NCBI RefSeq assembly: GCF_008189525.1 | Contig: NZ_CP043314.1 | Location: 570,001 to 602,000, forward strand | From: Candidatus Saccharimonadota bacterium | Lineage (GTDB): Bacteria > Pseudomonadota > Alphaproteobacteria > CAJXXZ01 > 1604HC | Direction of reading: 5' to 3' | Length of the DNA stretch: 32,000 bases | In this document: positions 9,781 through 31,419 of the stretch, in pieces | Layout: each line of letters opens with the position of its first letter | Numbering within the stretch: position 1 is the stretch's first letter | Made by a program: the position numbers and the translations under genes | The notes under the pieces: model-generated | Seen by the model: the letters and a program-made list of their open reading frames with translations, nothing else | What the model was told of the DNA's origin: nothing | Databases searched by the model: none

Positions 9781-11667
9781 TCAATTGTTTAGAGATCTTA
9801 AAATGTAATTTATATCATTTTCCATAAAATCTACATTCATTTCCTTAATATCATTCCTTTGGTACATCTGATGTGACATTAATATTAAGTCTGATTTAGG
9901 ATGTATGCCTTTAAACAAAAATCTTCTAGATTTTCTCAGCATTCCAATAGTCCCTGAAAGGTCAACACTTCTTCCTTGTGCTTTTTCTTTTGGATCTTTA
10001 ATTGTCAATAATATTACTACAGATTTCTTGTCATCAAGTGAAGATTTCTTTGCAGAAAACAAATCAACCATAGGAACTGATTTTAGACCAGGTATTCCTG
10101 TGTTTCCATATTCACTTATATGACTGTACAACCCACCTATAGCATAGGTTTTTCCTATTTTCGCAGTTATGTCACTTTCCATTGTTGCTGTCATAACATT
10201 TGCTCTATCATTAGCAGACCCAGCAGAGTTCTTGAATGAATTTTTACTAAGATCCACCTTAACATTCAAAAATATACTGTCTTTGTTAACATCTCTAGAT
10301 TGTATATCTATTTTTATACCTGTAGGTATTGAAGAAAGCGCACTTCCCACATCTCCTCCAGCACTTACAAAAACCTTGTCCCCAGAATAGAAGTGTCCCC
10401 TTCCATTTCTTGTAATTTGTATAAGAGGTCTAGCCATTATATCCACCAAACTAGAACTAGAATTGGCAATATTTAAATTATATCTTATATCTTCGAAACC
10501 TATAGAAAATCCTTTGGTAATAGATTTGGTAGTATTATTTTCATCCAAAATCCATTTTCCATCCACATTAGCATATCCTTTGTTAACGTGTCTGTTCAAC
10601 AAATTCCCATTAGAAACTCTCATTCCTAATCCTTTAGTTTCTTCATCTCCAAAGTTCTGCAAAGCTTCTAAAATATTGTTTCCCCTAGAAAATCTAGAGT
10701 TTTCAGAAAAGCTTAGAACTATACATTCTACAACGAAGTTATCTATAGGATGATCTTTTTTAATTTCTTTCTTCCTAGATTCTTCTCTTTGTATTTTCGC
10801 ATAGTTTATATTTTTCAATTTACTATTTAACTCTAACCATTCTTCTGCTCTACCATACAAGTAGCTAACATCTTCTTTGTTACTTGTCTTCTCAGAAAAC
10901 TTACGTATAAATTCGTAACATTTTTTATCTCCATATGATGCATATATTAATGCAGCTAATCTACAAACTCTTTCCGATGAGTCAAAATTGAGCAACCTAT
11001 CAATTGCATTTTTAGAAACAGAAATATATCTAAGTGCATATGAAGCATTAGCAAGCCCATATAGTGCTTCTATGTTGTATTCATCTTGCATGATCACTCT
11101 ACTAAACAAATCCATAGACTTACTGTAGTTGTGATTCATACTATAATGCCTACCAAGCGCAATTAAAACCTTCACATTATTTGGGTCTATGCTTAATGAT
11201 TTCTTGTACGCAACCAACGACAATCCTGAATAGGCTGGCTCTGATTCAGCAAGCCTTTCATATATAAATCCATTTAACAAATGTAGCTGAGTATAATTAG
11301 GATTCATGTTCAACCCTCTGTTTATTACCCTAGATGCATCTCTCCATCTGTAATTCTTAACTAGATCTTCCAGTTGTTTCTCAAATAAAACCTCTTCATT
11401 TTCACATCCTTGTAGAATAAAAATGAAAACAAATATACTCGATTTAAATATCTTTCTAGATTTATTAAAAATATAGCTTAGGAACACTTTGTACCTAGGC
11501 TTATTCTTTGATGCATAATTACAGCTATATTTTCTATTATTAGAATAGCTATCACCACTATACACCTCACTATATCTTCCACTATGTTTACAAAATATCT
11601 TTCTTACAGAAAATGACTTCCTTGTATTCAAAATATATTTTTCTTTAAATTTTCTTAAAAATTGCAT
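9781..11667 (-). CDS. Lipoprotein with N-terminal TPR-like repeats fused to a C-terminal secretin domain
   Basis: The lipobox-like FIFILQGC is followed by TPR-like helices (about aa 95-270, e.g. LNMNPNYTQLHLLNGFIYERLAE, SLSIDPNNVKVLIALGRHY, EYNIEALYGLANASYAL). The secretin C-domain follows, with the hallmark KTYAIGGLYSHISEYGNTGIPGLKSVPMVDLFSAKKSSLDDKKSVVILLTIKD. The annotated ATG gives an ~85-aa leader before the lipobox and overlaps uppP by 23 nt, so the true start may be a downstream non-ATG codon. Confidence 0.7.
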   Translation of the reverse strand: MQFLRKFKEKYILNTRKSFSVRKIFCKHSGRYSEVYSGDSYSNNRKYSCNYASKNKPRYKVFLSYIFNKSRKIFKSSIFVFIFILQGCENEEVLFEKQLEDLVKNYRWRDASRVINRGLNMNPNYTQLHLLNGFIYERLAESEPAYSGLSLVAYKKSLSIDPNNVKVLIALGRHYSMNHNYSKSMDLFSRVIMQDEYNIEALYGLANASYALRYISVSKNAIDRLLNFDSSERVCRLAALIYASYGDKKCYEFIRKFSEKTSNKEDVSYLYGRAEEWLELNSKLKNINYAKIQREESRKKEIKKDHPIDNFVVECIVLSFSENSRFSRGNNILEALQNFGDEETKGLGMRVSNGNLLNRHVNKGYANVDGKWILDENNTTKSITKGFSIGFEDIRYNLNIANSSSSLVDIMARPLIQITRNGRGHFYSGDKVFVSAGGDVGSALSSIPTGIKIDIQSRDVNKDSIFLNVKVDLSKNSFKNSAGSANDRANVMTATMESDITAKIGKTYAIGGLYSHISEYGNTGIPGLKSVPMVDLFSAKKSSLDDKKSVVILLTIKDPKEKAQGRSVDLSGTIGMLRKSRRFLFKGIHPKSDLILMSHQMYQRNDIKEMNVDFMENDINYILRSLNN

Positions 11668-15114: not shown

Positions 15115-18100
15115 ATGAATTATTCTAAATCAGTAACGAACATGGAGAAAAATTTCTTCTCCAAAGCAGATCCTTTTCAAAAATCATCAAAATATGAATC
15201 CAAATCTCGAATGGTTTTACCTCCACCAAACATTACCGGAAAACTACATATAGGACATGCACTAAATGCTTTTGTTCAAGATTTAAAAGTTAGATATGAA
15301 AGGTCATTTAACAACAATAAAATATCCTGGATCCCTGGAACTGATCACGCAGGAATTGCAACACAAATAATGGTAGAAAAATTATTACTAGAATCAAATA
15401 TTAAAAAAGAAGATTTGGGCAGAGAAAAGTTCCTAGAAAAAGTTTGGGAATGGAAAGAAAAGTATCAAGATAATATATATGATCAATTAAAGAAACTTGG
15501 TTTGGAGCTAGATTGGGATCAAGCTAAATTCACTATGGATGAAGATGTACAGGAGGCTGTATCGGAAGCTTTTTGTAAGTTTTATAAATCAGGATTGATA
15601 TTCAAAGATAATAGAATTGTACATTGGGATACAAAGATGCAAACTGCCATTTCAGACCTAGAGGTAAGAAATGAAGAAGTCACTGGCTATATGTATTATA
15701 TAAAATATTATTTTGAAAACTCTTTATCAGAAGATTCACCAAAGAATACTACAGAAGAGCCTATTTCTGAAAACTTCGTAACAGTTGCCACTACAAGACC
15801 AGAGACTATGTTCGGAGATAAAGCAATAGCCGTAAATCCTAACGATGAAAGGTATAAAAACCTTATAGGAAGATCTGCATATATTCCAATGACAGATATC
15901 AAAATTCCTATAATTTCAGATGAAAGATGTGATATGGAAAAAGGATCTGGAGCTGTAAAAATAACTCCTGCACACGATTTCCTAGATTTCGAAATAGGAA
16001 AAGACCATGACCTAGAGGTACAAAATATTATAGATAAGTACGGAAAATTATCAGGAGATTCAGTACCAAAATCATTACAAAATATAGATAGATTAGAAGC
16101 TAGAAAAAAAATAATAAAAGAATTAAAAGACAAAGAATTATTAGTAAAAGAAGAAAAGATAAAACATATCATTCCTCACGGAGATAGATCTGGATCTATA
16201 TTAGAACCTATGGCTACTAAGCAGTGGTTCTTAGATATGGACAGCATGGCTTCTGAAGCAAAAGAAGATATACAAAATATTGCAGTATTTCCGCAGAATT
16301 ATATTAAGATATTTAACCATTGGATGAACAACATACAGCCCTGGTGCATATCCAGACAAATATGGTGGGGACATCAAATACCTGTGTGGTATTTTGATGA
16401 TAATCATATATATGATTTAGAGAAATATAATAGTTACAAAAAACATGGAACAAATTATTTAACATCCGATTATGGGCAAATAAATAAAGACAATGAACAA
16501 TTTAGTAAAAATGCAAACTTGAATCATGAATTTTTGAATCAGGTGAATTTTGAAAAGAGATTTATAGTTGCTAAAGACATAGAGTCAGCTAGAAAAATAG
16601 CTAAAGACATAGGCATAAAGAATGATTCTCTAACACAGGAAACTGATGTCTTGGATACTTGGTTTTCTTCTGCCTTGTGGCCTTTAGTAAACTCTAAAGA
16701 AATAAATAGCATATTTACAAACTCACTAAACCAGGAACTAAATCAGAAATCAACTCAGGAACTAAGCAAGGGCTTAGATCCAAAAAATGAAGAATATCCA
16801 AATGAATGCATAATAACTGGAAGCGATATATTATTCTTCTGGGTTGCTAGAATGATTATGTTTTGTAAATTCTTTTCTAAAAAAATTCCTTTCAAGCAAA
16901 TATATTTACATGGACTAGTTCAAGATAGCTTTGGGAAGAAAATGTCTAAATCTAAAAACAATGCAATGGATCCTTTAGATATAATTGCAGAAGAAGGAAT
17001 TGATGTATTGAGATACGCCCTGCTATCCTCTTCTGTTCCTGGTAAAAATGTAAAATTCGGGAAACAAAACATAGAAAAATCTAGACATTTCTGTATAAAA
17101 ATATGGAATGTATTTAAATTTATAAAATCAAACTGTTCAGAGCTATTTGATGTAAATATACACACTCCAGAAAACATGGAAGATAATCTAAAATCAGGAG
17201 AATCAAGCCAAACACATGACTCACAAGAAATAAAAAAACAAAACATACCTCAAGAAGAAAGTAGTTATAACTTGCCTGAAAATCTTCATCCATGGAACTC
17301 TTTTATAGTATTAAAAATCTCTGATATAAGGAAAACAATACTTGATTTTATAAGTGAATGGAAAATACATGAAGCATCAAACGAAATATATAAACTAATA
17401 TGGGAAGATTTTTGCAGCCTATACATAGAAGGATGTAAGAGTATGCTTAACTCAGAACATTCTATGGAGACAAAGATTGTAATAACAGAATCTTTTAAAG
17501 AGTTAATAAGAATACTGAATCCATTTATGCCTGTTCTAAGTACAGAGATATTCTCTCTTATGGAAAATATAAACCCACAAACTAAAGCATATAATTCTAA
17601 CCTGACCAACAAACCATGTAATACATCATGCAGCTTTGATTCTATTCTTGATTCAATATTAAAAAAGAAATCTCAAAAAGAAAACCAAGAAAACGAAACA
17701 TTGATAAAGTCTAAAACATTGGATTATATAAAAGAAATTACAGAAATTACAGATTCAATAAGATACTGCAAAGGTGTATTGGGAATAGAGAACTCAATTA
17801 TATATCATGTAAACATAAAGCAGGATCATGTAGGAGAAAATATTATACAGGGTTCCAAATCCCATTTAGAGTCAAATGTAGAAAAGGATGAAGTGTTTTA
17901 TAATATAATTGAAAAGTTGTCTGGGTTTAAAATCCATCCTTCAAAAGAACCTAAAAATGACATGACACCTTACCCGCTGCAACAGGGGGTTTTATACATA
18001 AATTTCTTAGATAAAGATCTAAACAAGTTAAAAAATAAAATAAAGAAAGAGAAAGAGAAATCTTATCAAGATCTTTCTGACGCAGAAAGGAAAATTGAGA

Positions 18101-18219
18101 ATAAGCAATTTATTGAAAATGCTCCTACTGAAATCAAAGAGGAAATCAAGGAAAGAATTGCAAAACTAAAGCAAATTGTAGATAATTTTGATAAAGTGGA
18201 ATTGATGTGGAGCAAGTAA
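15115..18219 (+). CDS. valS: Valine--tRNA ligase
   Basis: 1034-aa class I synthetase. It has LPPPNITGKLHIGHAL (HIGH), KMSKSKNN (KMSKS), an editing-domain TTRPETMFGD block, and the ValS-type C-terminal coiled coil with FIENAPTEIKEEIKERIAKL. There are several lineage-specific insertions. Confidence 0.95.
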   Translation: MNYSKSVTNMEKNFFSKADPFQKSSKYESKSRMVLPPPNITGKLHIGHALNAFVQDLKVRYERSFNNNKISWIPGTDHAGIATQIMVEKLLLESNIKKEDLGREKFLEKVWEWKEKYQDNIYDQLKKLGLELDWDQAKFTMDEDVQEAVSEAFCKFYKSGLIFKDNRIVHWDTKMQTAISDLEVRNEEVTGYMYYIKYYFENSLSEDSPKNTTEEPISENFVTVATTRPETMFGDKAIAVNPNDERYKNLIGRSAYIPMTDIKIPIISDERCDMEKGSGAVKITPAHDFLDFEIGKDHDLEVQNIIDKYGKLSGDSVPKSLQNIDRLEARKKIIKELKDKELLVKEEKIKHIIPHGDRSGSILEPMATKQWFLDMDSMASEAKEDIQNIAVFPQNYIKIFNHWMNNIQPWCISRQIWWGHQIPVWYFDDNHIYDLEKYNSYKKHGTNYLTSDYGQINKDNEQFSKNANLNHEFLNQVNFEKRFIVAKDIESARKIAKDIGIKNDSLTQETDVLDTWFSSALWPLVNSKEINSIFTNSLNQELNQKSTQELSKGLDPKNEEYPNECIITGSDILFFWVARMIMFCKFFSKKIPFKQIYLHGLVQDSFGKKMSKSKNNAMDPLDIIAEEGIDVLRYALLSSSVPGKNVKFGKQNIEKSRHFCIKIWNVFKFIKSNCSELFDVNIHTPENMEDNLKSGESSQTHDSQEIKKQNIPQEESSYNLPENLHPWNSFIVLKISDIRKTILDFISEWKIHEASNEIYKLIWEDFCSLYIEGCKSMLNSEHSMETKIVITESFKELIRILNPFMPVLSTEIFSLMENINPQTKAYNSNLTNKPCNTSCSFDSILDSILKKKSQKENQENETLIKSKTLDYIKEITEITDSIRYCKGVLGIENSIIYHVNIKQDHVGENIIQGSKSHLESNVEKDEVFYNIIEKLSGFKIHPSKEPKNDMTPYPLQQGVLYINFLDKDLNKLKNKIKKEKEKSYQDLSDAERKIENKQFIENAPTEIKEEIKERIAKLKQIVDNFDKVELMWSK

Positions 18220-18713
18220 TGATTTTCATAAAAAAAGCAACAAGTTTTATAAAAAATTTAACAAAGACAATAGTTAATAAGATAAATACGAAGAATTTAT
18301 TTTATAGCACAAACTCCAAACAAAACATATTCACAAAACTTCTACTAATATCTTCCCTTGTATTTATTCTTCAAGGATGTGAAGAAGAGAAACATATGAA
18401 CTGCCCAAAAGGCAAATTAATAGGAATGACAAAAACAGAATTTATCAGTAAATATGGAGAAGGTGCAATAAAGCATCCGCTAGATAACAACACATGGTTT
18501 TACGTAGATCTGATTTACATAAACAGTCTTTTTTCTAAGACTGCAAAAGGAAATTGGATGAGCGTAAGGATCAGCAATAACAAGATTGTAGAATTGAGAA
18601 AAGGCAAGCTTCCAAAGAAAATGAAAATGAAAGAACATAAAAAAGAAACATTAGTAAAGAAAAAGATTGCTGAAGAGCTGTTTGGATATGTTGGATCTGC
18701 ATCTTCATACTAA
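18207..18713 (+). CDS. bamE: BamE (SmpA/OmlA)-like outer-membrane lipoprotein
   Basis: The lipobox LVFILQGC is followed by [28 protein letters not shown], which matches E. coli BamE GMTQQQVAYALGTP....NTWFYV. The start is uncertain: the ATG at 18219 overlaps the valS stop in TAATG, and in either case the leader before the lipobox is unusually long. Confidence 0.5.
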
Positions 18714-18918: not shown

Positions 18919-19194
18919 ATGCTTAAAGACAGAAAATACACCAAGTATGAACTTGTTTCAGCATTAACTCAAAGAGCTAAGCAACTGTTTGCAGGAGATG
19001 ATCCTAGAGTAGAAACAAAGCATTCTGAAAAACTATCTTACATAGCGTTAAAAGAGTATATGCAAGGTCTTTTGGACATAGAATCTTTACTTAATGAAGC
19101 TAAAATGATTTACACAGATCAGGCTGTAGCTTTTGAAGATGATGAAGATGATGACAACTATGCATTCGATGCAAACGAAGAAGACAAGCAATAA
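18919..19194 (+). CDS. rpoZ: DNA-directed RNA polymerase omega subunit (tentative)
   Basis: 91-aa ORF starting 2 nt after the rpmJ stop. KYTKYELVSALTQRAKQL resembles the RpoZ core NRFELVLLAAKRARQL, and the C-terminal tail is acidic. Confidence 0.55.
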   Translation: MLKDRKYTKYELVSALTQRAKQLFAGDDPRVETKHSEKLSYIALKEYMQGLLDIESLLNEAKMIYTDQAVAFEDDEDDDNYAFDANEEDKQ

Positions 19195-19435
19195 TCTCCA
19201 TCAATTTATTTCAATATTAATTCTAAACAAACTAATTAATTATCATAAATTATTATTTTAATTATTCTCATGACAAGCGTTACGTACAATTTCTATATTA
19301 AGATTAAATATCTTAAATTAGATAAACATTTTGTAGAGCCCCTGAAATCAGAATAGTATAAAAAAAAAGATATTCTTATTCCTAGAAATTCATTTCATTT
19401 TTTATTTATAAACGACATAAATTATACTTATAAAA

Positions 19436-19717
19436 ACATAAACATTGTGTATAAGGGTATATTTTGGTAAGTTCTTTGCAAGATCTCAGGAGGGATGATG
19501 ACAAGTAATTTGGATAAATTTACATCTGGAGCTAGTGCAAAACAGAGTGCTAACGCTAACGGAAGTACGAACAAGGCAAGCAAATCAAGCACTATGAGCA
19601 AAATGAGGAGCATACTGAAGCTATGCACACTTGCACTTACAGCCCAACACACAAACACGGTTGACATCCCGAAACTACACGACATCCCTAACGAACATGG
19701 TTGTTTTTATCATTTGA
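19436..19717 (+). repeat. Outer inverted repeat, left arm (5' leader, SD, 33-codon leader and constant LRR head)
   Basis: Hand alignment with the reverse complement of 31004-31283. The region from ~55 nt upstream of the ATG through codon ~32 is essentially identical (1 indel and 2 mismatches, all upstream). The head region has about 10 further mismatches, mostly synonymous. Confidence 0.9.
19488..19493 (+). promoter_or_regulatory. Shine-Dalgarno AGGAGG for LRR paralog 1 (within the outer inverted-repeat arm)
   Basis: AGGAGG lies 1 nt and 4 nt upstream of the tandem ATGs at 19495 and 19498. The same sequence is mirrored at 31227-31232. Confidence 0.6.
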
Positions 19718-21510
19718 AATATACAAAAAATGGAACTTTGGATTTATATGAAAGCGGATTGCCAAAATATGAAAGTGGATTGGTAGATCTGTTAGATGGA
19801 ATGGTAGAAATGCATAAATTCAGCAAATCTGACATAGAATTTGTTGCGTTTCTAAGACATGAAATAGAAAAAATCCTTGAAGTTGATTACAATAAGGGAC
19901 TAGAAAATGACTTCTTACTTAAATTTCCAAAAATAAAGGGCATAATAGGAGATGGTGAGCTTGAAGAAGAAGTTTTAGCTGAACATGGATACTCAAAAGA
20001 AGATTATGACAGTACTATTACTGGGTATAATGTTAGAGATTCTTTGGATTGTTTGATTCGTGCCAAGAGAATTTGGGGCAAAATGATTGACCAATATGGG
20101 GAAGAAGATCTTAACAAAATCAAAGATTCAGTAAAAAATGCAAACCATGAATACGAATTAGGGAAAAAAACTCACCTAAACTTAAAAGTTATGCATAATT
20201 TGGTAGGATATGGATTAAGGCAAAGAGAAGCAGCTGGTATGCCAGATGAATCTACATTTTTGCAAAGATGGTACTCTGGAAGACATGCTTATGCAGACGA
20301 TAAAAAGTCTAAAGTATCTATAAAACTAGATAATAGTGCGTTTATTTATCAAGTAATTCCTACTAAAGATTCAGGCACAGACTATGAGAAGAAACCTTGC
20401 GAACGTCATTCGAATATTATGTCTGTTTCATATTTCGATGCAAATACAAAAACAGACAATTTAGTTTGGGCTGGAGATGAAAGAGAATTAAAAGAGAGAA
20501 CCTGCAAAGTTGTTCAATACAACAGCTTCCCAGATTTAAGAAACTTGGATAGAATCGGTCCAATTTTCCAATATGCACTGGCATTGAGATATGTTCATTT
20601 AGATATCACAAGCCCTGATCATTTGTATTGGATGAGATTTGCGCAAGACTTGGAATATGTGAAATTGAGAGTTACAGAATCAGACCACCTAAAGCACTTG
20701 GGTTTGTTGAAAAACACACAATACTTAGGTATTACTAACATAAACGTAGATGATGCAATCATTCTTCCTGAAGAAATCGGCACATTAAGCAAATTAAGGT
20801 GCTTACACTTGAGTGGAGTTGAAGGATATCCAAACCAGATTCATGGAATTAAAGGATTACGTGAAATTAAGTTCGTGGAATCCGAAGGTAAGATAGATAA
20901 AAGCTTAAGTGATTTAGATAAATTGGTACATTTGGAGTTAAGTGGTAAGGTAGAATTGCCTGAAACTATAGAATTATGGGGGCTAGAATCTCTTGTTGCA
21001 CCTAGCGCAGATATAGAAAAAATGCCTAGATTTATCTGCCCTGAATTAAGGTATTTAGATTTAGGAAGTGCAAGATTAGACCATGCTTTAGAGCCTGGAG
21101 CAAAATTACCTATATTTGCAGGTGGTAATGAAATGACCAAAGCAGTAGATTTATCTGAATGCCCTGAGCTACGTGAAGTTTGGGTTGGAAACAGAATCAA
21201 CGAAGTTGACGTGTCTGTGTTTAAGAGTTGCAAAAAGTTGATGTATATTGGACTTGGAGTTGATTTTAAGTACAGTATTAAATCAGGTTTGACTGAGTAT
21301 GTTAAGAAAAATGAGCTATTCTTCGAGTTACTACATCCACTTAATGCAGGTGAAAAATTGCAATACAACTGTAAGATTCCAGGAGAAGATGGTGAGTGGC
21401 TGAAGTTAAAGAGATACCAAGAAAACCAAAAGAGAAATTGGGTAAGAAATAAAAATGCTAGATATAAGCATATGGCAAAAATCTTGAAAGAAAATGGTCA
21501 GCTAAAATAG
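19495..21510 (+). CDS. Leucine-rich-repeat protein, paralog 1 (candidate secreted/injected effector)
   Basis: 671 aa. A 33-aa S/T/N/A/K-rich leader is followed by the constant head MSKMRSILKLCTLALTAQHTNTVDIPKLHDIPNEHGCFYHLKY and a ~260-aa region I do not recognise. About 9-10 irregular LRRs follow (e.g. LPEEIGTLSKLRCLHLSG, LSDLDKLVHLELSG, CPELRYLDLGS, CPELREVWVGN), and the protein ends in a basic tail KRYQENQKRNWVRNKNARYKHMAKILKENGQLK. Confidence 0.75.
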   Translation: MMTSNLDKFTSGASAKQSANANGSTNKASKSSTMSKMRSILKLCTLALTAQHTNTVDIPKLHDIPNEHGCFYHLKYTKNGTLDLYESGLPKYESGLVDLLDGMVEMHKFSKSDIEFVAFLRHEIEKILEVDYNKGLENDFLLKFPKIKGIIGDGELEEEVLAEHGYSKEDYDSTITGYNVRDSLDCLIRAKRIWGKMIDQYGEEDLNKIKDSVKNANHEYELGKKTHLNLKVMHNLVGYGLRQREAAGMPDESTFLQRWYSGRHAYADDKKSKVSIKLDNSAFIYQVIPTKDSGTDYEKKPCERHSNIMSVSYFDANTKTDNLVWAGDERELKERTCKVVQYNSFPDLRNLDRIGPIFQYALALRYVHLDITSPDHLYWMRFAQDLEYVKLRVTESDHLKHLGLLKNTQYLGITNINVDDAIILPEEIGTLSKLRCLHLSGVEGYPNQIHGIKGLREIKFVESEGKIDKSLSDLDKLVHLELSGKVELPETIELWGLESLVAPSADIEKMPRFICPELRYLDLGSARLDHALEPGAKLPIFAGGNEMTKAVDLSECPELREVWVGNRINEVDVSVFKSCKKLMYIGLGVDFKYSIKSGLTEYVKKNELFFELLHPLNAGEKLQYNCKIPGEDGEWLKLKRYQENQKRNWVRNKNARYKHMAKILKENGQLK

Positions 21511-23454
21511 ATGGAGGCAAAAAATATGATTACAAACAAATATAAAATGGGTAATATGAGCAAAATGAGGAACATACTGAAGCTATGCACACTTGCACTT
21601 ACAGCCCAACACACAAACACGGTTGACATCCCTAAACTACACGACACCCCTAACGAACATGGTTGTTTTTATCATTTTAAGTACGTTGAAGGAACTTTTA
21701 GCATAGAAAAGAATGAAACTTTTGAACTTTTAGAGCAAATGTATGAACAAAGTAAATACAGCATAGAGGATATTAAATTAATCGCATTTCTAAGACATGA
21801 ACTAGAGAAGATACTTGAAATTGATTATAAAAAAGGATTGGAAAATGATTTCTTGCTAAAGTTTCCAAAAATAGAAGAAGTTATGGGAGATGGAGAATGG
21901 GAAGAGGAGGTTTTCCTAGGTCATGGATATTCAAAAGAAGAGTATAGACAAACTGATATAGTCTGTAACGTCAGAGATGCTATTTCTTATATGGAATATA
22001 CAAAAAGAATCTGGGGCAAAATTATAAAACAAGAAGATGAGGAAACTGCTAAAGAAATAAAAGATTCAGTAAAAAATACAAATCATGAATGCGAGCTAGG
22101 TCAGAAAACCTATCTAAACTTAGGAGCTATGCTTAATTCCATAGGATATGGATTGAGACAGAGAAAAGAAGCTAGAATGCCAGGTGAATCTACATTTTTG
22201 CAAAGGTGGTATTCTGGAAGACATGCTTATGAAGATGACAAAAAATCTAAAGTATCTATAAAGTTGGATAATAGCAAATTTATCTATCAGGGCATACCCA
22301 CTAAAGATTCAGGAACTGACTATGAGAAAAAACCTATAGAATATAATAATTCTACAGATTTGATGTATTTATCCTATTTCGATGCAAACACAAAAACAGA
22401 TAATCTGGTATGGTGTGGAGATGAAAGAGAACTTAAGGAAAGAACCTGCAAAGTTGTTCAATACAATAGCTTTCCAGATTTGAGAAACTTGGATAGGATA
22501 GGTCCAATTTTCCAATATGCACTGGCTTTAAGGTATGTTCATTTGGATATAACAAGCCCTGATCATTTGTATTGGATGAGATTCGCACAAGATTTGGAAT
22601 ATGTGAAATTGCGTGTAAAAGAATCAGATCATCTAACACATTTAGGTTTGTTGAAAAATACACAATACCTTGGAATTACCAACATAAACGTAGACGAAGC
22701 GATCGTTCTTCCTGAAGAAATCGGCACATTAAGCAAATTAAGGTGCTTACACTTGAGTGGAGTTGAAGGATATCCGAACCAGATTCATGGAATAAAAGGA
22801 TTACGTGAAATTAAGTTCGTGGAATCTGAAGGTAAAATTGATAAAAGTTTGAGCAACCTAGATAAACTTGTTCATTTAGAGCTAAGTGGAAAAGTAGAAT
22901 TGCCTGAAACCATAGAACTATGGGAACTACAATCTCTAGTTGCACCTAGTGCAGACATAGAAAAGATGCCTAAGTTTATTTGCCCTGAATTAAGATATTT
23001 GGATCTAGGAAGTGCAAGATTAGAGCATGCTTTAGAACCTGGAGCAAAATTGCCTATATTTGCAGGTGGTAATGAAATAACAAGCGTATCTGACTTATCT
23101 GAATGTCCAGAATTAAGAGAAGTTTGGGTTGGAAACAGAATCAACGAAGTTGATGTTGAAGTGTTTAAGAATTGCAAGAAGTTGATGTACATAGGATTAG
23201 GAGTTGATTTTAAATATAATATCAAGCAAGGATTAACTGAGTATGTTAAGAAAAATGAGCTATTCTTAGAGTTACTACATCCACTTAATGCAGGAGAAAA
23301 ACTTCAATACAGCTGTAAGATTCCAGGTGAAGATGGTGAATGGTTGAAATTGAAGAGATACCAAGAAAATCAAAAAAGAAATTGGGTAAGAAATAAAAAT
23401 GCTAGATATAAGCATATGGCAAAAATCTTGAAAGAAAATGGTCAGCTAAAATAG
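21511..23454 (+). CDS. Leucine-rich-repeat protein, paralog 2
   Basis: 647 aa with the same architecture as paralog 1, and most positions are identical by eye. It has a short leader, MEAKNMITNKYKMGN, before the constant head. The likely start is 21526. Confidence 0.75.
   Translation: MEAKNMITNKYKMGNMSKMRNILKLCTLALTAQHTNTVDIPKLHDTPNEHGCFYHFKYVEGTFSIEKNETFELLEQMYEQSKYSIEDIKLIAFLRHELEKILEIDYKKGLENDFLLKFPKIEEVMGDGEWEEEVFLGHGYSKEEYRQTDIVCNVRDAISYMEYTKRIWGKIIKQEDEETAKEIKDSVKNTNHECELGQKTYLNLGAMLNSIGYGLRQRKEARMPGESTFLQRWYSGRHAYEDDKKSKVSIKLDNSKFIYQGIPTKDSGTDYEKKPIEYNNSTDLMYLSYFDANTKTDNLVWCGDERELKERTCKVVQYNSFPDLRNLDRIGPIFQYALALRYVHLDITSPDHLYWMRFAQDLEYVKLRVKESDHLTHLGLLKNTQYLGITNINVDEAIVLPEEIGTLSKLRCLHLSGVEGYPNQIHGIKGLREIKFVESEGKIDKSLSNLDKLVHLELSGKVELPETIELWELQSLVAPSADIEKMPKFICPELRYLDLGSARLEHALEPGAKLPIFAGGNEITSVSDLSECPELREVWVGNRINEVDVEVFKNCKKLMYIGLGVDFKYNIKQGLTEYVKKNELFLELLHPLNAGEKLQYSCKIPGEDGEWLKLKRYQENQKRNWVRNKNARYKHMAKILKENGQLK
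21513..21517 (+). promoter_or_regulatory. Shine-Dalgarno GGAGG suggesting the true start of LRR paralog 2 is the ATG at 21526
   Basis: In the sequence ATGGAGGCAAAAAATATG, GGAGG sits 8 nt upstream of the in-frame ATG at 21526. The ATG at 21511 directly abuts the upstream TAG. Confidence 0.5.
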
Positions 23455-25377
23455 ATGGAGGCAAAAAATATGATTACAAACAAATATAAAATGGGTAATA
23501 TGAGCAAAATGAGGAACATACTGAAATTGTGTACGCTTGCACTTACAGCCCAACACACAAACACGGTTGACATCCCGAAACTACATGACACCCCTAACGA
23601 ACATGGCTGTTTTTATCATTTTAAGTACGTTGAAGGAACATTGAATCTGGAACAGAATGAAACCTACGAACTTTTGGAAGGAATGTATGAGCAAAGCAAA
23701 TACAGCTCAGAAGATATAAAATTGATTGCCTTCTTAAGACACGAACTAGAAAAGATTCTTGAAGTTGATTATAAAAAGGGGTTAGAAAATGACTTCTTGC
23801 TCAAGTTTCCTAAAATAGAGGAAGTTATGGGAGACGGAGAATGGGAAGAAGAAGTTCTACTAGGTCATGGATACTCAAAAGAAGATTACAGACAAACTGT
23901 TATTACCTGTAATGTTAGAGATTCTTTTGATTGCTTGATTCGCTCAAAAAGGATCTGGGGCAAGATGATTGACCAATATGGAGAAGAGGATCTAAACAAA
24001 ATAAAAGATTCAATAAAAAATGCAAACCATGAGCATGAATTTGGAAAGAAAACTCATCTTAATTTAAAAGTTATGCATAATTTGGTAGGATATGGATTAA
24101 GACAAAGAGAAGCAGCTAAAATGCCAGATGAATCTACATTTTTGCAAAGATGGTACTCTGGAAGACATGCTTATGAAGATGACAAAAAATCTAAAGTATC
24201 TATAAAGTTAGATAACAGTGCATTTATTTATCAAGGCATCCCTACTAAAGATTCAGAAACTGATTATGAAAATAAACCTTGCGAACGTGATTCAAATATT
24301 ATGTATGTATCATATTTCGATGCAAATACAAAAACAGACAATTTAGTTTGGGCTGGAGATGAAAGAGAATTAAAAGAGAGAACCTGCAAAGTTGTTCAAT
24401 ACAATAGTTTCCCCGATTTAAGAAACTTGGACAGAATCGGTCCTATTTTCCAATATGCATTGGCTTTAAGGTATGTACATTTGGATATCACTAGCCCTGA
24501 TCATTTGTACTGGATGAGATTTGCACAAGACTTAGAGTATGTGAAATTGAGAGTTACAGAATCAGACCACCTAAAGCACTTGGGTTTGTTAAAAAACACA
24601 CAATACCTTGGAATTACCAACATAAACGTAGATGATGCAATCGTTCTTCCTGAAGAAATTGGTAGTTTAAGCAAATTAAGATGCTTACATTTAAGCGGAG
24701 TTGAAGGATATCCAAACCAGATCCATGGCATTAAGGGATTACGCGAAATTAAATTCGTAGAATCTGAAGGTAAGATAGACAAAAGCTTAAGTAATCTGGA
24801 CAAGCTTGTTCACTTAGAACTAAGCGGTAAAGTAGAGTTGCCTGAAACCATAGAATTATGGGAACTACAATCTCTAGTTGCACCTAGTGCAGACATAGAG
24901 AAAATGCCCCAATTTATCTGCCCTGAATTAAGATACTTAGATCTAGGAAGTGCAAGATTAGAGCATGCTTTAGAACCTGGAGCAAAATTGCCTATATTTG
25001 CAGGTGGTAATGAAATTACTAGCGTATCTGACTTGTCCGAATGTCCTGAGCTACGTGAAGTTTGGGTTGGAAACAGAATCAACGAAGTTGACGTGTCTGT
25101 ATTTAAGAGTTGTAAGAAGTTGATGTATATTGGACTTGGAGTTGATTTTAAGTACAGTATTAAATCAGGTTTGACTGAGTATGTTAAGAAAAATGAGCTA
25201 TTCTTCGAGTTACTACATCCACTTAATGCAGGTGAGAAATTGCAATACAACTGCAAGATTCCAGGAGAAGATGGTGAGTGGTTGAAATTAAAGAGATACC
25301 AAGAAAACCAAAAGAGAAGCTGGATGAGAAAAGAACACCCAAGGTACAAACGCATGGAAAAGATCTTTAAGGTTTAA
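23455..25377 (+). CDS. Leucine-rich-repeat protein, paralog 3 (mosaic of paralogs 1 and 2)
   Basis: 640 aa. The N-terminal ~160 aa follow paralog 2 and the middle follows paralog 1. ELWELQS...RLEH...NEITSVSDLSE follows paralog 2, and VSVFKSCKK...YSIKSGL...LFFELL...QYNCK follows paralog 1. Its basic tail is distinct: KRSWMRKEHPRYKRMEKIFKV. Confidence 0.75.
   Translation: MEAKNMITNKYKMGNMSKMRNILKLCTLALTAQHTNTVDIPKLHDTPNEHGCFYHFKYVEGTLNLEQNETYELLEGMYEQSKYSSEDIKLIAFLRHELEKILEVDYKKGLENDFLLKFPKIEEVMGDGEWEEEVLLGHGYSKEDYRQTVITCNVRDSFDCLIRSKRIWGKMIDQYGEEDLNKIKDSIKNANHEHEFGKKTHLNLKVMHNLVGYGLRQREAAKMPDESTFLQRWYSGRHAYEDDKKSKVSIKLDNSAFIYQGIPTKDSETDYENKPCERDSNIMYVSYFDANTKTDNLVWAGDERELKERTCKVVQYNSFPDLRNLDRIGPIFQYALALRYVHLDITSPDHLYWMRFAQDLEYVKLRVTESDHLKHLGLLKNTQYLGITNINVDDAIVLPEEIGSLSKLRCLHLSGVEGYPNQIHGIKGLREIKFVESEGKIDKSLSNLDKLVHLELSGKVELPETIELWELQSLVAPSADIEKMPQFICPELRYLDLGSARLEHALEPGAKLPIFAGGNEITSVSDLSECPELREVWVGNRINEVDVSVFKSCKKLMYIGLGVDFKYSIKSGLTEYVKKNELFFELLHPLNAGEKLQYNCKIPGEDGEWLKLKRYQENQKRSWMRKEHPRYKRMEKIFKV
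23457..23461 (+). promoter_or_regulatory. Shine-Dalgarno GGAGG suggesting the true start of LRR paralog 3 is the ATG at 23470
   Basis: This is the same junction sequence as at 21511-21528, repeated exactly 1944 nt downstream. Confidence 0.5.
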
Positions 25378-25381
25378 TTCA

Positions 25382-26131
25382 GTGGGAGCAAGAGGAGATC
25401 GTTCTACTAAGGAAAAAAAAGAAAAAGCAAAGGAAGTAGAACAGCAGCAAGAAACCATAATTGATGAAGAACCCGTCGATCCAGATATAGGAAGTATATG
25501 TCAGATATACGATGAGAAGTGGGGCGAGACGGTAAGGAACGTAAATGCAGGTACGTATCAGAAACTGATGACGCTTACAAATTTCGGTACAATTGAAGAA
25601 CTAGAAATAGAGGAAGAGCTGTCTGAGCCTTACACTATAAAAGGTAAGTGTTTCTTTTGGGAAGAGATATATGGCGACGTAGTTGGCATGGAACCGAAGG
25701 TCACATTAGCAACAGAAGGTAAAACAAGATATTGGCACGGAGTTATAACTGAGTGGATCGAAGGTGGAACTGATCTTAAGGACGAAAGATATTACTACGA
25801 ATTCGAGATGCGACCAAAATTATGGTATAGGATGCAAAGCAGGCAAAACAAGATACATGTGTCGGATAAGGGCATGCGTGTTAAGGAACTGGCAAGCAAA
25901 CTAATCGAAGATGCGATGCAGAATAATAAAAATACGAAAGTAAAGTTTGAGCAAAAGTACGATGTTAATTTCGCAAAAGTGAAATCAGCTCAAAATAATC
26001 CAAATGAACCATTGATAGAATATGCTGTGCAATATGAAGAAACTACTTACGGTTTCTTCCAAAGATTACTAAGCAATCATGGTATATTTTATTATTATAA
26101 AGTCGAAGACAATTATTCCTGCCTAAGCTAA
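25382..26131 (+). CDS. VgrG N-terminal (gp27-like) head fragment, intact 249-codon ORF with GTG start
   Basis: From DPDIGSICQIYDEKWG to HGIFYYYK it is collinear with residues ~28-235 of the full VgrG at 26841-29414, with 2 amino-acid differences. It then ends with a unique tail, VEDNYSCLS. It starts 4 nt after the LRR3 stop. Whether it is a pseudogene is discussed in the findings. Confidence 0.7.
   Translation: MGARGDRSTKEKKEKAKEVEQQQETIIDEEPVDPDIGSICQIYDEKWGETVRNVNAGTYQKLMTLTNFGTIEELEIEEELSEPYTIKGKCFFWEEIYGDVVGMEPKVTLATEGKTRYWHGVITEWIEGGTDLKDERYYYEFEMRPKLWYRMQSRQNKIHVSDKGMRVKELASKLIEDAMQNNKNTKVKFEQKYDVNFAKVKSAQNNPNEPLIEYAVQYEETTYGFFQRLLSNHGIFYYYKVEDNYSCLS
25477..26101 (+). repeat. Inner inverted repeat, left arm (vgrG head)
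   Basis: 625 nt collinear with the reverse complement of 28710-29334, with 31 mismatches and no indels by my block-by-block hand alignment. Confidence 0.9.
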
Positions 26132-26262
26132 ATTCCACTTATTTAAAAAATCTGATTACTAGAGCTTACAATTAAAAAGATTGATAAGTGATAAAACTAC
26201 AAAAACATAAACATACAAAATCAGAATTATCAACAAAATATTTCAACTGTAGTAAGAAAATA

Positions 26263-26841
26263 CTAACCCATCTCTACGCCAGATTCAAAATAAGTTTTCT
26301 TGATTATTTTTCCTTCTGGATCATATACAGTCCATTGCCCATCTTTTAAATCTTCAAGATACATTCCAGACTCCATGATAGAACCTGTTTTCGGATAAAA
26401 AGTCACAGAAAAACCATTCAATTTATTTTTCTGGAAAATTTCTTGTTTTAACAATTCTCCTTTTTCGAAAACCAAAAACAGCCCGCTTTTCTCTCCATTT
26501 TTGTAATTACCCTTATTAGATATTCCATTTGCATCAAATACGTACACAGGTCCGTGCATCAAATCATCTTTATAATTTGTAATCATTAATAAATTCCCAG
26601 ATTCATATATTTCCATAGGCCCATTCATCTTATTACCAGAATAATTTGTGCGTCTCGTTATGACACTTTTCTCATAAAGAGTCTCTTCGCCTTCTTTTTC
26701 TCCAGCTTTGGAATAGTATCTCTGTACCAGATTTCCTTCTTTATCCCTTATTTCATTATAATCTAAATCACTTTGATCTGATTCTTTGACTGCTCCACAA
26801 GGCTTATAAAAATCGACTATTTGTTCTTTTGTTATATTCAT
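26263..26841 (-). CDS. MORN-repeat-variant (YwqK-like) protein
   Basis: 192 aa made of about six ~23-aa units with the pattern G.......Y.nGk.dG....Y/F (e.g. NYSGNKMNGPMEIYE, NYKDDLMHGPVYVFD, NYKNGEKSGLFLVFE, YLEDLKDGQWTVYD). Its ATG overlaps the vgrG stop (TAATG at 26839-26843 on the minus strand). Confidence 0.7.
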   Translation of the reverse strand: MNITKEQIVDFYKPCGAVKESDQSDLDYNEIRDKEGNLVQRYYSKAGEKEGEETLYEKSVITRRTNYSGNKMNGPMEIYESGNLLMITNYKDDLMHGPVYVFDANGISNKGNYKNGEKSGLFLVFEKGELLKQEIFQKNKLNGFSVTFYPKTGSIMESGMYLEDLKDGQWTVYDPEGKIIKKTYFESGVEMG

Positions 26842-29414
26842 TAGTTTATTTTTACCATTGAACCCTTTATATTAGCAATTGTGTCTGCCTTTAAATCCAA
26901 TTTAGCTCCTTTTATAGACACTCCCGCTTTTCCTTCTATTGAAACTTGTCCCGAAGATTTCAAGCTTATATTAGCATTCGAAGAAATTTCTACAGATTTG
27001 CTAGATTCCATATTAATTCCATCTGCAGAAATTTTTATAGCACCTCCACTTATAGATATTGTATAATCACCAGACTTTATACTAATTGACTTGTTCCCTT
27101 TTATATCAGATTTAAAGTCCCCACTTGATAATGAAATTGATAAATCACCTTTTTCTAATGTTGTACTCAAATTTCCTGAAGCCAATTTCATATCCAAATT
27201 ACCTTTTTCTATTTCGTTAGAAATATTTCCTTCTGTGATTTTCTCTATCAAATCACCTTTGGAGATTTCTATTTTATGATGTGATTTCTCATCTCCCTTG
27301 GATAATAGAGAAATTTCCTTGCTCCCTTTTTCTAGTGTTATTTTATAATCACCCTGCTTTTCATCATCTTCAGCTAGAGTGCTTATTTCTATATTTCCAT
27401 TATTTACCTGCGTATCAATATCCCCTTGTTTTACAAGCAAAATTTTGTCATTTTCTATTTCTGTAAGTAAATCTTTCTGTGCATGGATATAAATTTGCTC
27501 TTCTTCAGCTTTATCAGATATAGTAATTTCATTGAATCCAAAATCTTCTTTTTCATCATCAATTGTTTTGGTTCTCAATCCAGTTTTATGAGAATCATCT
27601 GGCAAATCATATGGATTAGAATTTATGCTATTAAATACCGTACCTATAACAATAGGGTTGTCTGGATTTCCATTTTCATAAGTAACTATTACTTCTTGTC
27701 CAACTCTAGGTATGTAAGAGCCTCCAAATCCAGCGCCTGATCCTCCCCATTGTGCGACTCTCACCCAGCAAGATCTTTCAGAATAAGAAAGCGTATCATC
27801 GTTGTCCCAGTTGAATTTTATTTTCACTCTACCTAAGTCATCAGTGTTGATTTCTGCATTATCAGGCCCTACCACAATAGCAGATTGATATCCTAATATT
27901 TGTCTTTTTACTTTAGGAAGCACTTTAAAAACTGTATTCTCTTTCAGGAAAATAGATTCATTTACATAAGAATATTCAAACCCACTTACTTGACCAGCTT
28001 TGCTTTTTATATTTTGTTGTTTGTACAAAGGGTCAGTTAACGACTCTTCTGCCATTTCTGGGTTTTTCAAAAACAGTTTATGCTTAGTTTTTCTAGCATA
28101 GTATTTATTATCTATGACTTCTTTTACCTGATCAGGAAGATCTCTTTTTGATGCTGCTTTAACATCTGATTTAATTTTTTTTATTTTACTTTTCTTTTCA
28201 GTTTTGTAAACTTTTGTATGTTGATATAAATCTAGGGCAGATTTTAGCTCAAACAAATATCCAGGGCTAATCAAAAAATTACTTGTCACAGACTTATATT
28301 GAGTTTTTACAGACTCTGATGAGTCAGTAATATGCTTTGCATGGTCCTCTGCAGCATCTGGGTCAGTTAATGTTTCGAAGTATTCATTATTTTCAAAGCC
28401 TTCTTCAGCATTTCCCTCATGCTTTTTCTCTTCAACTTTTCCAAGTTTATCGAATTCTACCTCGATACCTGCTTTTTCGTAATTTCGACCTCTTGCCTTT
28501 TGTTTTCCTATCGCATATCTGTTTACTTTTCCCCATGTATCCACAAAAGGGCTGTTTATTTCATCTGATCCCTGTTTAGATAAGAACAAGTTGTCATAAT
28601 TAGCTTCGACCTTGTCATTATCACCTATTTCAATCTTACGTATGCCTGTAATAGGTTCCATTTTGGAAGTGTTATCCTTGAATATGATTTTACTTCCATC
28701 TTTCGCATGTTTATAGTAATAAAATATACCATGATTGCTCAGTAACCTTTGAAAAAACTCATATGTAGTTTCTTCATATTGAACTGCATATTCTATTAAC
28801 GGTCCGTTTGGATTATTTTGAGCTGATTTCACTTTTGCGAAATTAACATCGTACTTTTGCTCAAATTTTACTTTCGTATTCTTGTTATTCTGCATCGCAT
28901 CTTCGATTAGTTTGCTTGCCAGCTCCTTAACACGCATGCCCTTATCCGACACATGTATCTTGTTTTGCCTGCTTTGCATCCTATACCATAATTTTGGTCG
29001 CATCTCGAATTCGTAGTAATATCTTTCATCCTTAAGATCAGTTCCACCTTCGATCCACTCAGTTATAACTCCGTGCCAATATCTTGTTTTACCTTCTGTT
29101 GCCAATGTGACCTTCGGCTCCATACCAACTACGTCGCCATATATCTCTTCCCAAAAGAAACACTTACCTTTTATAGTATAAGGTTCCGATAATTCTTCCT
29201 CTATCTCGAGTTCTTCAATTGTACCGAAATTTGTAAGCGTCATCAGTTTCTGATACGTACCTGCATTTACGTTCCTTACCGTCTCGCCCCACTTCTCATC
29301 GTATATCTGACATATACTTCCTATATCTGGATCGGTAGTTTGAGATTCAGCACTTTTCTGTGCAGAAACTTCACCGTCTTTAGTTTTCTTTTTCTCTTTA
29401 TTTTGTTTAATCAT
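26841..29414 (-). CDS. vgrG: VgrG spike protein (type VI secretion / contractile injection system)
   Basis: 857 aa. The gp27-like part contains YWHGVITEW, YYYEFEMRPKLWY and IEYAVQYEETTYEFFQRLLSNHGIFYYYKH (compare canonical REYCVQYxESDxxFxxRLLEEEGIxYxFEH). The gp5 OB-fold part contains CWVRVAQWGGSGAGFGGSYIPRVGQEVIVTYENGNPDNPIVIGTVFN. The C-terminal ~200 aa form an 8-residue-periodic beta-helix (KGDLSISLSSGDFKSDIKGNKSISIKSGDYTISISGG) ending in GSMVKIN. There is no toxin extension. Confidence 0.9.
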   Translation of the reverse strand: MIKQNKEKKKTKDGEVSAQKSAESQTTDPDIGSICQIYDEKWGETVRNVNAGTYQKLMTLTNFGTIEELEIEEELSEPYTIKGKCFFWEEIYGDVVGMEPKVTLATEGKTRYWHGVITEWIEGGTDLKDERYYYEFEMRPKLWYRMQSRQNKIHVSDKGMRVKELASKLIEDAMQNNKNTKVKFEQKYDVNFAKVKSAQNNPNGPLIEYAVQYEETTYEFFQRLLSNHGIFYYYKHAKDGSKIIFKDNTSKMEPITGIRKIEIGDNDKVEANYDNLFLSKQGSDEINSPFVDTWGKVNRYAIGKQKARGRNYEKAGIEVEFDKLGKVEEKKHEGNAEEGFENNEYFETLTDPDAAEDHAKHITDSSESVKTQYKSVTSNFLISPGYLFELKSALDLYQHTKVYKTEKKSKIKKIKSDVKAASKRDLPDQVKEVIDNKYYARKTKHKLFLKNPEMAEESLTDPLYKQQNIKSKAGQVSGFEYSYVNESIFLKENTVFKVLPKVKRQILGYQSAIVVGPDNAEINTDDLGRVKIKFNWDNDDTLSYSERSCWVRVAQWGGSGAGFGGSYIPRVGQEVIVTYENGNPDNPIVIGTVFNSINSNPYDLPDDSHKTGLRTKTIDDEKEDFGFNEITISDKAEEEQIYIHAQKDLLTEIENDKILLVKQGDIDTQVNNGNIEISTLAEDDEKQGDYKITLEKGSKEISLLSKGDEKSHHKIEISKGDLIEKITEGNISNEIEKGNLDMKLASGNLSTTLEKGDLSISLSSGDFKSDIKGNKSISIKSGDYTISISGGAIKISADGINMESSKSVEISSNANISLKSSGQVSIEGKAGVSIKGAKLDLKADTIANIKGSMVKIN
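28710..29334 (-). repeat. Inner inverted repeat, right arm (codons ~28-235 of full-length vgrG)
   Basis: Partner of 25477-26101. Confidence 0.9.
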
Positions 29415-29419
29415 GCTAT

Positions 29420-31225: not shown

Positions 31226-31283
31226 CCCTCCTGAGATCTTGCAAAGAACTTACCAAAATATACTCTTATACGCAATGTTATGT
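31004..31283 (-). repeat. Outer inverted repeat, right arm
   Basis: Partner of 19436-19717; see that entry. Confidence 0.9.
31227..31232 (-). promoter_or_regulatory. Shine-Dalgarno AGGAGG for LRR paralog 4
   Basis: This is the reverse complement of CCTCCT, immediately upstream of the ATG ATG at 31225-31220, and is a mirror image of 19488-19493. Confidence 0.6.
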
Positions 31284-31347
31284 AAAAGAATGATGATTTG
31301 TAGATTAAAAATTACTTTAGATTATTTAGAGATTTGTTAGGAATGAG

Positions 31348-31419
31348 CTGAGGTACTAGGATTCGAACCTAGGAATGGCGGGATCAAAACCCGCTGCCTT
31401 ACCACTTGGCTATACCTCA
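31348..31419 (-). tRNA. tRNA-Gln (anticodon UUG)
   Basis: 72-nt cloverleaf read from the minus strand. It has acceptor TGAGGTA/TACCTCA, D arm GCCAAGTGGTAAGGC (as in E. coli tRNA-Gln), anticodon stem GCGGG/CCCGC with loop TTTTGAT (anticodon TTG), variable loop CATTC, T arm CTAGG-TTCGAAT-CCTAG and discriminator G. CCA is not encoded. Confidence 0.9.

Follow-up and report, generated by a model that had tools for sequence, protein, structure and literature searches.

A shared N-terminal module of four leucine-rich repeat effector candidates, probably kept uniform by concerted evolution, at a palindromic vgrG locus

Concerted evolution by gene conversion is known from duplicated bacterial genes such as tufA/tufB, from rRNA operons and from the arms of palindromes. 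The effectors of Salmonella pathogenicity island 2 (SPI-2), among them SspH1/2, SlrP, SseI, SseJ and SifA/B, have a conserved N-terminal translocation domain with the motif WEK(I/M)xxFF, a module of ~140 aa that serves a type III secretion system (T3SS) and is spread among effector genes by recombination. The RIX domain, with its 55 aa, is necessary and sufficient for secretion (PMC10435454). Here we describe a 43-residue N-terminal segment, the head, which is common to four leucine-rich repeat (LRR) proteins (LRR1 to LRR4) encoded next to vgrG, a type VI secretion system (T6SS) gene. The window, i.e. the whole stretch of DNA that was analysed, is 32 kb long (contig NZ_CP043314.1, positions 570,001 to 602,000) and belongs to the ~616-kb genome of Candidatus Nesciobacter abundans, a member of the Holosporales that lives as an endosymbiont in the diplonemid Diplonema japonicum. 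An earlier note on this DNA had proposed that the head might be a delivery or loading tag. The analysis confirms the feature and finds an ordinary explanation for it: the head is an N-terminal module common to paralogous effector candidates, and concerted evolution has probably kept its copies alike.

The head consists of 129 nt (43 codons) and is present in the window in four copies, which are 91-97% identical in pairwise comparison:

19594-19722, plus strand: head copy 1, in LRR1 (MSKMRSILKLCTLALTAQHTNTVDIPKLHDIPNEHGCFYHLKY), holding all three non-synonymous differences
21556-21684, plus strand: head copy 2, in LRR2, 97% identical to the LRR4 head, with 4 differences, all synonymous
23500-23628, plus strand: head copy 3, in LRR3, 97% identical to the LRR4 head, with 4 differences, all synonymous
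30998-31126, minus strand: head copy 4, in LRR4, located by alignment and repeat search

The existence of the four copies, reported in the earlier note, was confirmed by repeat search, by alignment and by an invariant 41-nt core, which matches exactly the four sites and had no match in shuffled sequences. The copies had been placed correctly, but their ends at 19720 and 31004 were a few bases short, the complete codons ending at 19722 and 30998. The high nucleotide conservation with mostly synonymous differences also held, as 13 of the 129 positions are variable and 10 of these changes are synonymous, the three non-synonymous ones being confined to LRR1. Among the heads of LRR2-4 there are eight synonymous and no non-synonymous variable sites, where ~3 non-synonymous ones would be expected at the ratio of non-synonymous to synonymous substitution (dN/dS) of the bodies. 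The proteins are 600-671 aa long, and the first residue of the head is number 11 in LRR2/3 and number 33-34 in LRR1/4. Its 3' edge of identity is the same in every pair, and the stretch directly after it is the least conserved one of LRR1-3 (37-49% amino-acid identity). The description of the head as a discrete, constant module thus holds, with the proteins being most variable just behind it, and to judge from these patterns it behaves as a constrained module.

The four LRR genes are the following:

19495-21510, plus strand: LRR1 (QEK39300), 670/671 aa, with leader, head, variable linker, helical N-domain, LRR domain and basic tail
21526-23454, plus strand: LRR2 (QEK39301), 642 aa, start MITNK 8 nt past GGAGG, head from residue 11
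23470-25377, plus strand: LRR3 (QEK39302), 635 aa
29420-31225, minus strand: LRR4 (QEK39306), 600/601 aa, a paralogue of ancient divergence that lies 5 nt upstream of vgrG

It had been stated that LRR4 has no obvious similarity to the other three proteins immediately after the head. This is refuted by an alignment to LRR1-3 along 99% of its length with 27-30% identity (E values 3e-56 and 2e-36). The notion of a constant head on variable bodies, after the logic of MIX, Rhs and CDI systems, fails likewise, as all four bodies are homologous from end to end and have one architecture: leader, head, variable linker, helical N-domain, LRR region (Pfam LRR_14/LRR_4) and basic C-terminal tail. For the N-domain no family match was found in the libraries searched. 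The tails that end the four proteins (21400-21510, 23340-23454, 25290-25377 and 29420-29480) are strongly basic, e.g. KRYQENQKRNWVRNKNARYKHMAKILKENGQLK and YMLKNKRSKLNKNKDNFI. LRR1-3 form a tandem triplication on the plus arm with a period of 1938-1962 nt. In this region (19723-25377) LRR1 is similar to LRR3 in alignment columns 141-300 and 521-580, and LRR2 to LRR3 in columns 41-120 and 400-520.

That the genes have homologous start codons is seen from the alignment of 'GGAGG..ATGATTACAAAC' of LRR2/3 with 'AGGAGGGATGATGACAAGT' of LRR1/4. The likely start is this conserved GGAGG with an ATG, 10 codons (LRR2/3) or 32 codons (LRR1/4) upstream of the head; the internal MSKMR, which has no Shine-Dalgarno (SD) sequence in LRR1/4, is a less likely site of initiation. 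The claim that SD-supported starts lie upstream of the head was therefore correct, but the distances are 32-33 codons in LRR1/4 and 10 codons in LRR2/3, and the lower figure of 15 codons given before was wrong. Two antisense hydrophobic open reading frames (ORFs) over leader and head, of 85 aa (19428-19685, minus strand) and 101 aa (31035-31340, plus strand), were rejected as genes because they are present at LRR1 and LRR4 only and the substitutions fit the sense frame; most likely they are a by-product of complementing the Lys/Ser/Ala-rich leader.

The locus (19441-31279) is a palindrome, each arm of which consists of promoter/leader, head, LRR body and the 5' end of vgrG. Its repeats and the vgrG genes are:

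19441-19721, plus strand: outer left inverted-repeat arm, 281 nt, with upstream DNA, SD sequence AGGAGG, the 32-codon low-complexity leader and the LRR1 head
30999-31279, minus strand: outer right inverted-repeat arm, the matching block before LRR4, 96% complementary to the left arm
25477-26101, plus strand: inner left arm, a 625-nt repeat inside vgrG', 95% complementary to the inner right arm
28710-29334, minus strand: inner right arm, the same 625 nt in the 5' part of full-length vgrG
25382-26131, plus strand: vgrG', an intact 249-aa N-terminal VgrG fragment (gp27-like part), 4 nt past LRR3
26841-29414, minus strand: vgrG (TssI), 857 aa, with Phage_GPD, Phage_base_V and Gp5_trimer_C (TIGR03361, 305 bits)

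The tight coupling to vgrG noted before was thus confirmed for LRR4 and extends, at a distance of 4 nt, to LRR3 and vgrG'. The 32-codon leaders of LRR1 and LRR4 are rich in Ser, Ala, Asn and Lys, and the non-coding DNA upstream of the two genes is ~96-98% identical; before LRR4 there is a promoter-like site at 31286-31257 (consensus match only). When LRR3-vgrG' was aligned to the reverse complement of LRR4-vgrG, nucleotide identity was 97% in the head, 24-49% (mostly 36-49%) in the LRR body and 92-99% in the vgrG block. The homogenised parts of the palindrome are therefore its two arm ends only, divergence of the LRR middle having reached saturation. Misassembly as the source of the repeats is refuted, because the independent second assembly OY490516.1 is 100% identical to the window across 20,475 nt, with unchanged gene order.

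Divergence was estimated by the Nei-Gojobori method. Between LRR4 and LRR2/3, dS was 0.17 and dN 0 in the head, as compared with >1.7 and 0.87-0.90 in the body. Among LRR1-3, the head gave dS values of 0.12-0.46 and dN values of 0-0.03, and the body 0.68-0.93 and 0.07-0.11. A same-codon test, restricted to columns with an identical amino acid and hence independent of the uncertain alignment of divergent residues, gave for LRR4 versus LRR2/3 a rate of 90% in the head and of 46-47% in the body, with 45% expected from codon usage. Taking into account that the body rate equals chance and the head rate does not, these values show that the bodies diverged anciently and that the head is young. If the body rate applied to the head, synonymous differences as few as those counted there would have a binomial probability of 7e-8 to 3e-10. 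In the comparison of the LRR4 and LRR1 bodies (29423-30997 and 19723-21507), the same-codon rate was 0.56 with 0.45 expected, a slight excess, which may reflect one more small exchange, between the outer genes of the locus.

Five linked synonymous sites of the head group LRR1 and LRR2 against LRR3 and LRR4, one site groups LRR1 and LRR3 against LRR2 and LRR4, and the bodies group LRR1-3 against LRR4; LRR1-3 themselves are mosaics of alternating similarity. Purifying selection on the peptide is not sufficient to account for these patterns, because synonymous and upstream non-coding sites are held as well. Sharp-edged identity at such sites, incompatible partitions and mosaicism are what is expected of gene-conversion tracts, and together they point to repeated gene conversion. 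Function alone does not account for the near identity of the head at synonymous sites, whereas conversion does.

Gene conversion together with constraint on the peptide, acting in a palindromic locus of paralogues, probably explains the head. The bodies of the two arms would have diverged long ago, to synonymous saturation, and RecA-dependent conversion, repeated between direct and inverted copies, would keep the arm ends 95-97% identical, the tracts being the head block of 129-281 nt and the vgrG block of 625 nt. RecA and RecFOR are reported to be retained in the Nesciobacter genome, their genes lying outside the window (bioRxiv 10.1101/719211). Purifying selection would act on the head peptide as well, in which LRR2, LRR3 and LRR4 differ by no amino acid. 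All four paralogues may need the peptide for a common step, for which loading onto the VgrG spike of the reportedly Hcp-less T6SS would be the leading guess, because LRR4 and LRR3 lie 4-5 nt upstream of vgrG and vgrG'.

Several observations weigh against this explanation or parts of it. The dN/dS of the head over all copies (~0.08) is no lower than the average of the LRR1-3 bodies (~0.1), and as far as substitution rates can tell, no stronger constraint can be demonstrated for the head than for the other conserved parts of the proteins. A single replacement of the 5' end followed by drift would also yield a young head on an old body, and the head would then not have to possess a function of its own. 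The G+C content at third codon positions (GC3) of the head is 0.47-0.49, compared with ~0.23 in 12 control genes, a level reached by 0.2% of control windows, and no other coding stretch of the 32 kb is as rich in C (26-29%, compared with 13-15% in genes); the GC3 of the 625-nt vgrG repeat is 0.37-0.38, compared with 0.23 in the remainder of vgrG. The high GC3 of the head fits GC-biased conversion just loosely, and such conversion was unsupported as a general cause, third-position identity and GC3 being uncorrelated within LRR1-3. The T6SS, moreover, is reported to be without detectable Hcp (TssD) and TssJ (bioRxiv 10.1101/719211), which bears on the rules by which cargo would be chosen. Finally, the AlphaFold2 model, built with the 4-sequence alignment, is uninformative: its mean predicted local distance difference test score (pLDDT) was 52, that of the head was below 50, and a low-confidence helix was placed across MSKMRNILKLCTLALTAQH. 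A fold search with the model returned generic LRR solenoids only, with internalins and Leptospira LRR proteins at the top.

The earlier note had suggested a search for the head in other ORFs and genomes. In a word-indexed search of 5.8 billion clustered proteins, the head and the entire N-terminal half were found in these genes only, and an exhaustive HMMER profile search of 1.84 billion protein representatives returned Nesciobacter proteins alone. The invariant 41-mer and the head peptide patterns were absent from metagenome contigs. Neither an LRR nor a head relative was present in 80 vgrG loci of other bacteria obtained by a contig scan, none of them from Cytomitobacter; the valS neighbourhoods of Cytomitobacter contained no LRR-vgrG island or relative, their vgrG loci not being reached by this route. 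A genome-contig scan with the four-protein alignment gave no relative, the source genome itself seemingly lying outside the searchable set, and a word-indexed search with VgrG gave one distant match and did not return the query itself. A 56-aa ENA member of the LRR4 cluster (P0005) was discarded, its sequence being unrelated. The suggested profile and structure searches with the head alone yielded no match in Pfam or PDB (nor did the N-domain profile), in addition to the low pLDDT mentioned above. The N-terminal half had no match in Pfam or NCBIfam, and the head alone had none even at an E value of 10, libraries that may not include the RIX, PIX and WHIX models. The head and the N-terminal half are thus orphans restricted to Candidatus Nesciobacter abundans. 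Confinement of the head to these four genes was the first half of what the earlier note itself had named as evidence against its proposal. According to the supplementary table of bioRxiv 10.1101/719211 there are just two Pfam LRR_4 proteins in the whole genome, a count that fits with all LRR genes being at this one locus.

These results bear directly on the proposal that the head serves the T6SS as a new tag for delivery or loading, by which the LRR proteins would be docked on VgrG or an adaptor. By analogy the case is arguable, because LRR4 and LRR3 are 5 nt and 4 nt away from vgrG and vgrG', the head is a discrete module near the N-terminus, before a variable linker, and there is a precedent of the RIX type. 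The absence of amino-acid changes among the heads of LRR2-4 agrees with it, and so does the presence of LRR genes beside T6SS genes, noted previously in these endosymbionts (bioRxiv 10.1101/719211). However, the head is limited to four paralogues at one locus of one genome, the bodies are homologous and not polymorphic, no known delivery-domain model matches, the nucleotide identity is accounted for by gene conversion, and the head is predicted with a pLDDT below 50. Taken together, we regard a tag of this kind as rather unlikely. In a narrower form, the head might be an orphan, lineage-specific loading signal, by which an Hcp-less T6SS would load a number of diverging LRR host-interaction proteins onto a single VgrG spike; conversion would then keep the head and the N-terminal block of VgrG (also kept as a separate truncated protein) as the constant pieces of an interface and leave the LRR bodies free to diversify. 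This we consider doubtful.

A similarly low probability is assigned to the view that the head has no function of its own, and that LRR4 or the ancestor of LRR1-3 received, by a single recombination event, a paralogue's promoter and leader together with its first 43 codons, which would make the segment no more than a young one. The LRR1/LRR4 block does include non-coding DNA at 96-98% identity, the dN/dS of the head over all copies is no different from the body average, and relatives of the family in which conservation over the long term might be seen are lacking. But the incompatible site patterns need three or more separate exchanges, and LRR2 and LRR3 have just the head in common with LRR4, neither leader nor promoter. 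The identical 3' edge in each pair points to a module boundary. The segment of LRR4 past the head still aligns with LRR1-3 (G-T, then F/L-D-L), so the 5' end is anciently homologous. The eight synonymous and no non-synonymous differences among LRR2-4, with ~3 non-synonymous ones expected, also speak against a head that merely drifts.

It is improbable that the start of the head is a weak, cleaved Sec signal peptide (MSKMRNILKLCTLALTA|QH), which would make the LRR proteins periplasmic, to leave by a reduced secretin of the type II secretion system (T2SS) or type IV pilus kind. The n-region is basic (K, R), L-T-A|Q would be permissible as a cleavage motif, having small residues at -1 and -3, and Kyte-Doolittle hydropathy reaches a maximum of 1.86 in an 11-residue span. 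Sec signals are frequent among LRR proteins, such as the internalins and Leptospira LRR proteins that were the top fold matches, there is a secretin in the window, and relatives have T2SS E/F genes. But the run free of charged and amidated residues, LCTLALTA, has just 8 aa (mean Kyte-Doolittle 2.0), including two Thr, and overlaps the would-be c-region, whereas the runs in the four genuine signal or anchor sequences of the window (a PLD-like protein, two ILQGC lipoproteins and FtsQ) measure 10-17 residues. With the SD-supported start, which is conserved from LRR1/4 to LRR2/3, there are 10 or 32 residues in front of the segment, and the sequence stays conserved for 25 residues after the putative cleavage site. 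As to a lipoprotein signal, L-K-L-C breaks the lipobox rule [LVI][ASTVI][GAS]C, the true lipoboxes of the window reading I-L-Q-G-C. The earlier judgement that the head makes a poor classical Sec signal and no lipobox therefore stands, and such a signal is unlikely; the lysine is located directly before the 8-residue run.

Still less can be said for the possibility that the conserved entity is a nucleic acid, either an unstructured C/A-rich 5' coding region aiding (re-)initiation or a regulatory RNA or DNA site. It would agree with the C-richness of the head and its GC3 in the top 0.2% of control windows, with the folding of the head RNA, which was worse than that of 194 of 200 shuffles (z +1.63), and with the lack of promoters of their own in LRR2 and LRR3. 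However, selection on composition would not keep 90% of the codons identical, and the ratio of 10 synonymous to 3 non-synonymous changes is the pattern of a translated, constrained peptide. The idea of an RNA element failed on Rfam, where the head had no match, and on covariation, as no predicted pair showed a compensatory change.

Equally slight is the probability that the head has its role after delivery, as a motif for targeting in the host cell, in the form of a basic amphipathic helix for a membrane or organelle or of a Cys/His-rich metal-binding or acylation site. Its first 23 residues have a net charge of +3 with no acidic residue and coincide with the low-confidence AlphaFold2 helix, the second half holds four His and one of the two Cys, and the LRR domains point to eukaryotic targets; at 0.27-0.30, though, the hydrophobic moment is modest, and no motif or family match backs what is a purely inferential reading. 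A switch of the shufflon type was rejected on account of the collinear orientation of the two assemblies, the lack of a recombinase ORF in the 32 kb and the presence of a head on every body.

The remaining features concern vgrG and the surroundings of the island:

26263-26841, minus strand: MORN-repeat (YwqK-like) protein, downstream of vgrG
31347-31419, minus strand: tRNA-Gln, bordering the locus

Between vgrG' and vgrG there are ~28 synonymous and only 2-3 non-synonymous differences in 208 codons, and vgrG' is for this reason inferred to be under purifying selection; it is probably expressed and selectively maintained, not a decaying pseudogene. That LRR genes adjoin T6SS vgrG in these endosymbionts, and that a YwqK/MORN protein follows vgrG, was already noted by those who sequenced the genome (bioRxiv 10.1101/719211). 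A MORN/YwqK-like gene was also found right after vgrG in ~25 of the 80 vgrG loci, in many phyla (e.g. L004 2618-3109, L019 4576-5100, L040 1981-2493); because of this recurrence, the pair is a widespread module and not specific to endosymbionts.

In Nesciobacter, the LRR-vgrG island is located between rpoZ and tRNA-Gln (18919-31419). Behind valS-rpmJ of Cytomitobacter primus and C. indipagum there is one small unannotated ORF and then mutS, so the position of the island is lineage-specific. The Nesciobacter valyl-tRNA synthetase (15115-18219, plus strand) has 1034 aa, as compared with 837-899 aa in its closest relatives (44% identity), and must therefore contain ~150 extra residues as insertions. 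A 168-aa ORF (18207-18713, plus strand) and the TPR-secretin (9781-11667, minus strand) have the same lipobox, ..F/I-L-Q-G-C. In the longest ORF of each gene it follows an unusually long stretch of ~40-85 residues, and the true starts are probably further downstream.

If the head should prove to be a determinant of loading or export, it would provide a first handle on the choice of eukaryote-directed cargo by a reduced, reportedly Hcp-less T6SS of a diplonemid endosymbiont, and a 43-residue tag usable in reporter fusions. As it stands, the locus is a clear, small case of concerted evolution in which conversion is limited to the two ends of the repeat unit, in an endosymbiont with a genome of 616 kb and, as reported, RecA still retained; it should help annotators and will not surprise specialists.

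Comparison with described systems places the locus as follows. Like RIX, MIX, FIX, PIX and WHIX, the head is a short N-terminal segment common to several effector candidates near T6SS genes. But those domains occur in hundreds of genomes and are joined to C-terminal toxin domains of many unrelated kinds, whereas the head precedes four homologous LRR bodies at one locus of one genome, matches none of the models and is not arginine-rich, and any role of it in secretion is putative. With this class of delivery domains it thus shares the N-terminal position, but neither the polymorphic fusions, nor the wide distribution, nor a model match.

With internalin-type and Leptospira LRR proteins the four proteins share the LRR solenoid, the sole part with structural matches, and an N-terminal segment that is basic and then hydrophobic; unlike in those proteins, the hydrophobic core is too short, interrupted and set back by 10-32 residues, and conservation extends 25 residues past the cleavage point. 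The SPI-2 effectors of Salmonella likewise have a constant N-terminal region, common to LRR effectors and others, which in their case directs secretion, but the head has 43 aa and no WEK(I/M)xxFF motif; a loose WGK(M/I) occurs near residue 190 in LRR1-3 and is missing from LRR4. An injectisome-type T3SS is not among the systems listed for Nesciobacter in the supplementary table of the genome. Invertible segments and shufflons (the G segment of phage Mu, pilV of R64) resemble the locus in having inverted repeats in coding regions, a constant N-terminus and bodies on opposite strands. In contrast to shufflons, each LRR body here has a complete head, LRR1 and LRR4 each have a promoter, and an inversion would switch nothing.

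Against concerted evolution of the tufA/tufB type, the locus differs in that the two unit ends alone are homogenised, the 1.7-kb middle is saturated and the GC3 of the tracts is unusually high. In the near identity that includes synonymous and non-coding sites, in the sharp-edged mosaic tracts, in the arrangement of direct and inverted copies and in the reported presence of RecA, it is like these well-known cases.

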